45,560 nucleotides of DNA, from the sequence record NC_049955.1; one strand, 5' to 3'. The stretch is from Escherichia phage ev243. The position numbers are program-made. Below are positions 42,301 to 45,300 of this stretch, one piece after another; the stretch's first letter is position 1, and every line of letters begins with the position of its first letter.

Positions 42301-45300
42301 TCCAGGTATCGCCACCGAATTCTGGCAGAACGTCGGTCCATGCACCAATATCGTATGCTACACCGTAGTTACGGCCATAATCGATGGAGCCGTAGTCACC
42401 GAATTTCAGGCCAGCGAAGGCAAGACGGGTTTTATCTTTGGAGGAACCTTGAGATTCAGCGCGGTTGCCTTTGAATTCATATTCCCACTGACCGAAACCA
42501 GTCAGTTGATCGTTGATTTGGGTTTCACCTTTGAAGCCAAGACGGGCATAAGTAGTATCACCATCATCTGCATCATTAGAGGAGAAGTAGTGCTTAGCAT
42601 TAACTTTCCCGTACAGATCCAGCTTGTTACTGTCTTTATTATAAATTTCAGCTGCCTGAGCAGACATCGCCATCAGTACTGATGCAGCTACAGCAGAAAT
42701 TGCCACTGTTAATTTTTTCATCGTGAGCCCTTTTTTTTGAACTATTATTAAAAAATGATGTCACTGCGCGATAAATATTCATCTAATCAATGTGATTATT
42801 TCAAGATGTAAGTTTTGGTTTCTCGTTTAATTTGTGAAGTAGATCTCTATTTTTATCTGAACTTTTTTCTATCGAATCCTATTCATGGCTCTTGGCTGAA
42901 TAAAAATAAATCTATTAGCCAATTTATATTAATGGCTGTTATTTATAAGTGCTCTATAATTTGAAGGTTCAATTTAAATTGGCTAAAAATAACGCTGGAA
43001 ATTATTTGTTGGTTATTTGTTGAGATTTGCTTATGTATTTGTAGTGGTGTTTTCAATACTCGGTAGCATTCTCGCAAATATCATTTAGTGGTTTACGTAC
43101 GTAAAAAATTGGTTATGCTGTTAAGAGTGGTTACTTCGTCACACAGCTTAAACCCGCCGTCGAGCGGGTTTTTCCATTTTTTGAGTCTCGATATTAGCTG
43201 ATAACCCAATACCTGAGTTATTCACTGACTCCGAGTCTGTTACGTTTCTGCTTTTTTGCGATACGTTGTATTCCCTCAATTTACACCCGCTTTGTCTGCG
43301 AGGTGGGGTTATGAAATCCATGGATAAGTTAACAACGGGTGTCGCCTATGGCACCTCAGCAGGTAGTGCCGGTTACTGGTTTTTACAGCTGCTCGATAAA
43401 GTCACGCCCTCACAGTGGGCAGCAATAGGTGTGCTGGGTAGCCTGGTATTTGGCCTGCTGACGTACCTGACAAACCTTTATTTCAAGATTAAAGAAGATA
43501 AGCGCAAGGCTGCGAGAGGTGAATAATGCCTCCATCATTACGAAAAGCCGTTGCTGCTGCTATTGGTGGCGGAGCAATTGCTATAGCATCAGTGTTAATC
43601 ACTGGCCCAAGTGGTAACGATGGTCTGGAAGGTGTCAGCTACATACCATACAAAGATATTGTTGGTGTATGGACTGTATGTCACGGGCATACAGGAAAAG
43701 ACATCATGCTCGGTAAAACGTATACCAAAGCAGAATGCAAAGCCCTCCTGAATAAAGACCTTGCCACGGTCGCCAGACAAATTAACCCGTACATCAAAGT
43801 CGATATACCGGAAACAATGCGCGGCGCTCTTTACTCATTCGTTTACAACGTGGGTGCTGGCAATTTCAGAACATCGACGCTTCTTCGCAAAATAAACCAG
43901 GGCGATATCAAAGGCGCATGTGATCAGCTACGTCGCTGGACATATGCTGGCGGTAAGCAATGGAAAGGTCTCATGACTCGTCGTGAGATTGAGCGTGAAA
44001 TCTGTTTGTGGGGTCAGCAATGAACAGAGTAACCGCGATTATCTCCGCTCTGGTTATCTGCATCATCGTCTGCCTGTCATGGGCTGTTAATCATTACCGT
44101 GATAACGCCATTACCTACAAAGCCCAGCGCGACAAAAATGCCAGAGAACTGAAGCTGGCGAACGCGGCAATTACTGACATGCAGATGCGTCAGCGTGATG
44201 TTGCTGCGCTCGATGCAAAATACACGAAGGAGTTAGCTGATGCGAAAGCTGAAAATGATGCTCTGCGTGATGATGTTGCCGCTGGTCGTCGTCGGTTGCA
44301 CATCAAAGCAGTCTGTCAGTCAGTGCGTGAAGCCACCACCGCCTCCGGCGTGGATAATGCAGCCTCCCCCCGACTGGCAGACACCGCTGAACGGGATTAT
44401 TTCACCCTCAGAGAGAGGCTGATCACGATGCAAAAACAACTGGAAGGAACCCAGAAGTATATTAATGAGCAGTGCAGATAGAGCTGCCCATATCGATGGG
44501 CAACTCATGCAATTATTGTGAGCAATAGACACGCGCTTCCAGCGGAGTATAAATGCCTAAAGTAATAAAACCGAGCAATCCATTTACGAATGTTTGCTGG
44601 GTTTCTGTTTTAACAACATTTTCTGCGCCGCCACAAATTTTGGCTGCATCAACAGTTTTCTCCTGTCCAATTCCCGAAACGAAGAAGTGATGGGTGATGG
44701 TTTCCTTTGGTGTTACTGCTGTCGGTTTGTTTCCAACAGTAAACGTCTGTTGAGCACATCCTGTAATAAGCATTGCCAGAGCGGCAGAAAACAACATTTT
44801 TTTCATCTTATTATCCTGCATTGTTAAAAACGGCAGAATCCTATGTGACAACAATTAAACGATAGTTAAATGGATTGATGAAAATTAAAACTATATAGGT
44901 GGATGCTCAGCCTATTGGAGGAGGGGGGCACTCAGAATCCTGTGGAATGAAATAAACCGCTCTTTCTGTCCATTACCCTTTTAGCTGCGCTGTATCGTCG
45001 CCGTATTCCCGCATTAACCATGACCGTAGCCCGACGGGGAATTCCTTCTGCGTGAGTGTGCGGGAATAATCAAAAACGATGCACACCGGGTTTTACTGTG
45101 CTGACAGACGCAGGGTTACCCTCATAGTCGCTTTTCCGGTGCGATGGTGGAAGAAACCGGGATGTTCATCCATCATCACTTTGGATTGATGTATATGCTC
45201 TCTTTTCTGACGTTAGTCTCCGACGGCAGGCTTCAATGACCCAGGCTGAGAAATTCCCAGACCCTTTTTGCTCAAGAGCGATGTTAATTTGTTCAATCAT

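Follow-up and report, generated by a model that had tools for sequence, protein, structure and literature searches.

The plus strand of Escherichia phage ev243 (NC_049955.1), analysed here as a single stretch of 45,560 nucleotides (the window), carries a hairpin at positions 43150-43171 that is probably, at a chance we put near 0.8, the promoter-proximal tR'-type terminator of the late operon, which RNA polymerase would read through after modification by the phage antiterminator Q. The preliminary description of this DNA had offered two explanations for the hairpin: a terminator of this kind, or the end of a micF-like regulatory RNA running divergently from the neighbouring porin gene. The first was supported by homology and context; a homologue of a mapped late promoter, pR', lies 24 nt upstream, a Q gene of the Q21/Q933W family lies further upstream, the lysis cassette lies downstream, and the geometry is that of phage 21. 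It needed correction in two respects, in that pR', which had gone unrecognised, is placed beside the hairpin and not beside Q, and in that the leader is only about 50 nt long. On this reading the textbook mechanism is unchanged and the hairpin is an ordinary, previously unannotated tR'-type element. The parts of the proposed unit are as follows.

43092-43097, plus strand: -35 hexamer TTTACG of the putative pR', from alignments, at the sharp left edge of a conserved module
43094-43113, plus strand: -35/-10 spacer, a candidate Q-binding element, containing the palindrome TACGTACGTA (43094-43103)
43114-43119, plus strand: putative -10 hexamer TATGCT, with the pattern TAnnnT in all aligned loci
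43126, plus strand: predicted transcription start (A), by homology to the A at L007:1536 (Sakai Sp5 pR')
43126-43149, plus strand: initial transcribed region with the inverted repeat GTGG...(T/C)CAC, nearly invariant across loci
43150-43171, plus strand: terminator hairpin, stem AAACCCGC/GCGGGTTT, loop CGTCGA, +25 to +46
43169-43182, plus strand: T tract TTTTT-CCA-TTTTTT, with five T at 43169-43173 and six T at 43177-43182

The sequence of 43149-43182 reads t-AAACCCGC-CGTCGA-GCGGGTTT-TTCCATTTTTT, and the tail directly 3' of the hairpin is TTTTTCCATTTTTT. The 7-bp stem aacccgc/gcgggtt that had been described is present and gains one more A-T pair; in a consensus scan the hairpin has 8 pairs, 5 of them G-C, around a 6-nt loop, and the G+C core of the stem is the five pairs CCCGC/GCGGG. 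As RNA it folds at -12.0 kcal/mol (z = -3.0), a value equalled by 2 of 200 shuffles. Stem, loop, T tract and fold together give the anatomy of an intrinsic terminator on the strand of the late genes, and RNA 3' ends would be expected at about 43175-43178, within the T tract. The distances originally given were also correct: the holin ATG (43311) is 129 nt past the last T, and the divergent porin start is 429 nt upstream of the hairpin. When terminators were defined strictly (at least 7 perfect pairs, at least 4 of them G-C, and at least 5 T in 8), the whole window yielded 22 against 0.8 ± 0.95 in dinucleotide shuffles; this is far above chance, so that the phage genome has a genuine population of terminators, of which the hairpin is one. 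A lenient scan of the local 5.5 kb was not above chance (8 found, 5.8 ± 2.5 expected). Conservation is a stronger argument for the hairpin than these counts.

The hairpin is the 3' end of a module of about 90 bp (43092-43182) that recurs in other prophages. The 589-bp intergenic region between porin and holin is 93-99% identical to several coliphages, to PA-2 and to phage 434, and it matches 2,662 of 5,426 complete E. coli genomes, among them that of K-12, whose DLP12 prophage is identical to the window across promoter and hairpin; none of the matching coliphage, PA-2, 434 or K-12 records annotates a promoter or terminator at the site. The weakest E. coli matches are limited to window positions 43091 or 43118 to 43172; the prophages concerned have a PF06530 Q gene, then different cargo and then a lambda-family holin. 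In alignments, similarity begins sharply at 43092 (TTTACG), with none upstream of it, and extends across the hairpin and, more weakly, as far as the holin ribosome-binding site. A sensitive search of phage records found the same segment, 80 bp long, in 358 of them, mostly Shiga toxin (Stx) phages; in H-19B and VT2-Sakai the homologous segment overlaps the Q stop codon and is 77-78% identical to 43091-43173. Elsewhere the module follows Q and two hypothetical genes, follows Q and one gene, or directly abuts Q, and in phi467 it stands behind an unrelated lambda-type antiterminator (PF03589); downstream of it are a lambda-family holin, stx genes or a methylase. Since the module is found with such varied cargo and downstream genes, the hairpin is tied to Q and the late promoter and not to the porin or to a particular holin. 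Furthermore, the right edge of the shared module lies just past the T tract in three different downstream contexts, which fits a unit that closes with a terminator. A single extra locus, L115, was recovered by a 14-base pattern scan of genome contigs, the other matches of which were mostly chance hits in unrelated phyla.

The window was then compared with five loci whose Q is 44-51% identical to its own. Identity is 91-95% from -12 to +46, 40-68% in the -35 hexamer plus spacer, about 50% further upstream and 63-67% in the leader beyond the T tract; the initial transcribed region and hairpin form a separate unit, more constrained than the spacer. The segment from -12 to +46 is 73-78% identical to the Stx phages. 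Loops vary (CGTCGA, CATTGA, CGCGA and CGATGC) around a CCCGC/GCGGG core that is invariant in most variants. In phage 75/02 the A-U pair at the base of the stem is replaced by a C-G pair, and in phi467 the hairpin has lost one pair and gained another in the former loop, keeping the same position and seven T. In the stem alignment the paired cells amount to 93%, and to no more than 67% when the register is slid.

The -10 hexamers of the aligned loci are TATGCT, TATTGT, TAATCT, TATCCT and TATCAT. A promoter scan of VT2-Sakai picks TTTACG-16 nt-TATCAT, which aligns with TTTACG-16 nt-TATGCT at 43092-43119 of the window. In the Stx2a phage of strain Sakai the pR' start was mapped by differential RNA sequencing (dRNA-seq; Sy et al., PMC7547250), and the 3' end of the terminated transcript was mapped by Term-seq 258 nt past that start, at the predicted tR' (PMC7547250). 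The sole terminator at this distance in Sakai is GCCAGCC...GGCTGGCTTTTTT, which ends at L007:1793; this end and the 258-nt spacing together give A1536 as the start, seven bases after TATCAT. Because the Sakai record used is a later version with shifted coordinates, the anchoring of the start rests on the 258-nt spacing. With the homologous A43126 as start, the hairpin spans +25 to +46, the T tract extends to +57 and the terminated RNA would be about 50 nt long; a late promoter would, by this homology, lie 24 nt upstream of the hairpin in the same unit. An alternative promoter, with AAAAAT (43104-09) as the -10 element and TATGCT as a pause element, was rejected because there is no fitting -35 in the Stx homologues and because the start mapped by dRNA-seq suits TATCAT/TATGCT as the -10. 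Two observations concern the first transcribed bases: the PA-2 record J02580 annotates a CRP-binding site exactly on 43126-43146, and the inverted repeat in this segment, GTGG-N8-(T/C)CAC, could as RNA form a weak 5' hairpin of 4 bp.

Identity in the spacer between the -35 and -10 elements tracks the Q allele, being 73-82% with the Stx phages (Q 81% identical) and 40-68% where Q is 44-51% identical; the spacer thus travels with Q, as is expected of a Q-binding element, and in phage 21 this element is located in the -35/-10 spacer (PMC6606751; OL657228.1). A Q gene (PF06530) is present in the window, where similarity of the spacer and a covarying palindrome at -32 to -23 point to a putative Q-binding element. 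The palindrome, 8-10 bp long and overlapping the -35, varies between loci yet keeps its symmetry: it is TACGTACGTA in the window, TACGATCGTA in the Stx phages, GCGTACGC in L003, L115 and L130, and GCGG-T-CCGC in L004, SfIV and L131. As a candidate binding site for Q it would be an inverted repeat, whereas that of Q21 is a direct repeat.

The window represents a lambdoid phage genome arranged in virion order: the head genes are at its left end and the late regulatory and lysis region is at its right end. The genes around the hairpin are listed below.

41067-41450, plus strand: Q antiterminator gene, 127 amino acids, QuuD/Q933W type (Pfam PF06530, E = 5e-53)
41639-42721, minus strand: porin gene, nmpC/lc type (Pfam Porin_1, E = 4e-152)
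43183-43310, plus strand: untranslated leader of the lysis operon, 128 nt (fold of 43126-43320)
43311-43526, plus strand: S21-type pinholin/antiholin gene, essD type, with dual start (PF04971, E = 2e-35)
43526-44023, plus strand: SAR (signal-anchor-release) endolysin gene, R21/rrrD type (Pfam Phage_lysozyme, E = 1e-45; annotation of homologues in 434 and K-12)
44020-44481, plus strand: spanin gene Rz with embedded Rz1 (44240-44422) (open reading frame list; annotation of homologues in 434 and K-12)

The plus-strand lysis genes (holin from 43311, endolysin, Rz/Rz1) follow the hairpin with no intervening unit. The holin homologue is annotated as antiholin/holin class II in 434, and the porin homologue as lc in PA-2 and as nmpC in 434 and K-12. 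The porin is a cargo gene inserted between Q and the promoter on which Q would act, and it stands outside the late unit. The window Q is 81% identical to the H-19B/933W-type Q, and its residues 7-86 give a distant match (E = 7.6e-8) to the Q21 structures 6P18/6JNX.

Phage 21, the reference phage of the Q21 family, is among the closest known systems. Its Q is likewise a PF06530 protein, its late transcript has an intrinsic terminator in the first ~50 nt, and an S21-type pinholin, a SAR endolysin and spanins lie downstream. The phage 21 record OL657228.1, which cites Guo et al. 1991 and the Q21 structure papers, annotates pR', the start site and two Q-binding subsites in the -35/-10 spacer, together with a pause element at +2 to +8, a late terminator at +3 to +50 and, further downstream, the S21/R21 cassette. 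In the Q21 family, termination close to the promoter, after a leader of some 45-50 nt, is therefore the documented design. The two phages nevertheless differ: there is no detectable similarity of promoter or terminator sequence, the hairpin of phage 21 begins at about +4 and is longer (-20.2 kcal/mol), pR' follows Q21 immediately in that phage but is separated from Q by a 1.64-kb porin cassette in the window, two tRNA genes stand between terminator and S in phage 21, and the Q proteins match weakly (E = 7.6e-8).

From these comparisons we infer promoter use, termination and Q-dependent read-through in phage ev243 as follows. Sigma-70 RNA polymerase would start at A43126, 24 nt before the hairpin; without Q, about 50 nt would be transcribed, the CCCGC/GCGGG hairpin would form and the RNA would be released at the U tract, so that the holin, endolysin and spanin genes would stay off. 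After induction, Q (41067-41450) would bind its site in the -35/-10 spacer and load onto an early paused complex, where it would narrow the RNA exit channel and block formation of the hairpin, as in the Q21 structures; the Q-loaded polymerase would then pass the hairpin into the lysis genes and beyond. In those structures promoter-bound Q loads onto a sigma-paused complex, and its ring at the RNA exit channel prevents hairpin formation (PMC6606751; bioRxiv 10.1101/651190). With the porin inserted between Q and pR', the Q gene and the promoter at which Q would act lie 1.64 kb apart.

Several observations weigh against a Q-controlled terminator at this site. A sigma-dependent pause element would be expected in 43126-43149 and no convincing -10-like element was found there; the window allele has TACTTC at +7 to +12, without the final T of a -10-like element (the Stx alleles have TACATT), and AAGAGT at -3 to +3. 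No 3' end at 577,27x-577,28x is present in the curated Term-seq tables for K-12, a weak negative since the tables are confined to prominent ends and could miss an RNA of 50 nt; the supplements of Adams 2021, TERMITe and Rend-seq boundaries contained no direct 3'-end evidence at the site, and no RNA start or 3'-end data for phage ev243 or DLP12 were found. In the Sakai Stx phages the 258-nt RNA accumulates without Q despite the homologous early hairpin (PMC7547250), so that the hairpin can be leaky, at least in the Sakai allele. The stem alignment has 0 base pairs changed on both sides; with a stem almost invariant, covariation gives no independent support. Some alleles have only four U. Furthermore, G at 43166 is changed to T (GCTGG for GCGGG) in 25 of 75 loci from IMG/VR, which are near-identical Q alleles with porin cargo and so represent population variants rather than diversity; this makes a C-U mismatch in the stem, and the alternative hairpin then formed before the same U tract, CAGCUU/AGCUGG, is weaker, lowering the fold from -12 to -6.7 kcal/mol. 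The loci with GCTGG (among L135-L214), the leader of which is 185 nt long, have mostly intact holin and endolysin genes, and the allele may be a single lineage. Finally, primers in Table S1 of PMC7918800, taken with the range quoted there for the regulatory region, place the +1 of a different promoter, essDp, near window position 42771 (K-12 576,874).

These points bear on two further ways of reading the hairpin. In the main rival, it would be mainly a leaky attenuator or a 5' stem-loop (stabilising the RNA, for example) and not a decisive Q-controlled terminator, with basal read-through giving the low constitutive lysis-gene expression reported for DLP12; this differs from the Q-controlled terminator in degree, not in kind, and we regard it as unlikely. 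It would account for the passage of the homologous Sakai hairpin without Q, the recognised tR' there being the second terminator at +258, but in the window lineage there is no second terminator before the holin (none in 43183-43310, by the consensus scan and the fold of 43126-43320), and if termination did not occur at the hairpin a constitutive pR' would express the holin. It would also suit the weak U tracts of some alleles (GUUUGUCG, UUUUGUCG), the stem mismatch carried by one third of the sampled loci with their lysis genes still intact, and the report that DLP12 lysis genes are active in uninduced cells (PMC7918800); against this stand the only annotated late terminator of phage 21, at the same distance from the start, and the module boundary directly after the T tract.

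Alternatively, the hairpin could be an attenuator in the long 5' untranslated region of a transcript from the RpoE-dependent essDp, about 355 nt upstream (near 42771), with Q acting there and not at 43092-43126. Rueggeberg et al. are said to have reported such an RpoE-dependent promoter for the DLP12 lysis cassette in 2015. Near 42771 there is a GAACT-N16-GTCAC motif, which we take to resemble the sigma-E promoter consensus. PMC7918800, in what it cites from Rueggeberg et al. 2015, gives a regulatory region from -121 to +650. We nonetheless consider this arrangement very improbable, because the essDp region accompanies the porin cargo and is absent from the other Q-linked modules: other phages with a PF06530 Q show no conservation before position 43092 (about 50% identity), and the sequence there is paired with porin cargo in all 70 sampled loci of the window Q allele that extend far enough. 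Moreover, the homologous promoter at 43092-43119 corresponds to the pR' that was mapped by experiment in phages with an 81% identical Q. These comparisons suggest that the published essDp of the DLP12 lysis cassette should be re-examined. The reconstructed essDp start (~42740-42775) is about 50 bp from the porin start codon and conflicts with the putative placement of pR'.

It is also highly improbable that the hairpin terminates an independent trans-acting RNA, either micF-like and tied to the porin or StxS-like. In favour of such an RNA, pR' should yield a short transcript constitutively, the Stx phages process their pR' leader into the Hfq-binding small RNA StxS (PMC7547250), and the conservation of +1 to +46 exceeds the apparent need of termination alone. 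The element does resemble MicF in being a short RNA with an intrinsic terminator end, upstream of and divergent from a porin gene (ompC for MicF), but it lacks an Rfam match, linkage to the porin and specific complementarity to porin mRNA. An Rfam search of 40800-43700 on both strands (E ≤ 1) returned no MicF or other small RNA, the only match being a sub-threshold Trp-leader at E = 0.55, which is far below threshold and reflects the shape of the terminator. Across genomes the module occurs with non-porin cargo or with none, and is linked to Q and not to the porin. The predicted RNA pairs with the 5' region of the adjacent porin mRNA, the one porin covered by this test, at -25.8 kcal/mol against -25.3 ± 4.0 for shuffles, 121 of 300 being as good. 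The micF-like RNA of the preliminary description was therefore rejected: no Rfam match, no porin linkage, and pairing no better than shuffles. As to StxS, it derives from beyond +173, a segment absent in the window (PMC7547250). There is a slim chance that the ~50-nt pR' leader RNA is functional in itself, for instance in trans like StxS, in which case it would be made constitutively in nearly half of sequenced E. coli, including K-12; since +1 to +46 is nearly invariant across Q alleles that are 44-51% identical, and partly alongside a lambda-type Q, it may be conserved beyond the needs of termination.

The Stx phages (933W, VT2-Sakai/Sp5 and H-19B) share with the window a homologous promoter, initial transcribed region and hairpin (77-78% identity), a Q that is 81% identical, the same -35/-10 spacing and a hairpin at +24/25. 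They differ in having 200 nt more up to the second terminator at +258, the tR' of the literature, which yields StxS and lies in a segment absent in the window; in a pR' that overlaps the Q stop codon, without cargo; and in carrying tRNAs and stx downstream instead of a holin. Upstream of the StxS region, VT2-Sakai (L007 1559-1587) and H-19B (L006) have the homologous hairpin followed by TTTTTTT at +24 to +52, a U tract better than that of the window. This early hairpin is not discussed in the StxS paper (PMC7547250). A terminator-like hairpin that has gone without discussion thus precedes StxS and the toxin genes in the late transcript of Stx phages, and if the leader is indeed conserved beyond termination, this first terminator would determine the amount of polymerase arriving at StxS and stx when Q is absent. 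Positions 4482-4501 of the window, inside the head-gene open reading frame 4280-5734, also hold a near-copy of the hairpin of the Stx type (AACCCGCCTATGCGCGGGTT, then TTCTTTTG). We take this reading frame to be lambda gene C-like. The look-alike was rejected as a related element; it is inside coding sequence and is most likely a coincidence.

Lambda itself differs from the window in that its Q is of an unrelated protein family, its terminator is at +194 and not at about +50, and no cargo separates Q from pR'. Its initial transcribed sequence, which we take to be AACGATGGGTTAATTCGC, is similar to AAGAGTGGTTACTTCG of the window. Phi467, which has a lambda-type Q (PF03589), carries AAAGATGGGTAACTTCGCCACACAGCTTAAAC followed by the rebuilt hairpin and seven T (L132 2490-2550), and this initial transcribed region is intermediate between lambda pR' and the window module. 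The intermediate suggests a common ancestry for late leaders on which unrelated Q families act.

For the late region of the DLP12/PA-2/434 type, these results place a putative Q-responsive late promoter and terminator, neither of which is annotated in the K-12 RefSeq or curated phage 434 records. They also place the cargo genes (porin, KAP NTPase, nucleoid-associated protein and others) between Q and pR' and not past the terminator. The gap from the Q stop codon to the pR' -35 (41451-43091) is a recurrent cargo slot (loci L003, L004, L005, L130, L132 and L133), filled by the porin in the window; in other loci its contents are a transglycosylase, a KAP-family NTPase, a nucleoid-associated protein together with a hypothetical gene, or hypothetical genes in either orientation. 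The 933W-type phages carry no cargo, their pR' overlapping the stop codon of Q, and in the window the porin insertion replaced the last ~15 codons of the 933W-type Q.

Three minor features of the surrounding untranslated regions were also seen. The 3' untranslated region of the porin (41484-41638, minus strand) contains several hairpins and a strong end terminator, GGGGCGTTTCAACGCCCC (41501-41484); it had no match in Rfam, and we take it to be the published IpeX region of nmpC/lc. In the leader of the lysis operon a 16-bp segment, 43232-43247 (CTGCTTTTTTGCGATA), is absent from K-12 DLP12 and from about 40% of the sampled loci, and without it the leader is 169 nt long instead of 185 nt. Further along the leader, at 43275-43310, a 9-bp stem is predicted in which ACACCCGCU pairs with the Shine-Dalgarno region of the holin, GCGAGGUGGGGU, an arrangement that can be likened to the translational control structures known for dual-start holins.

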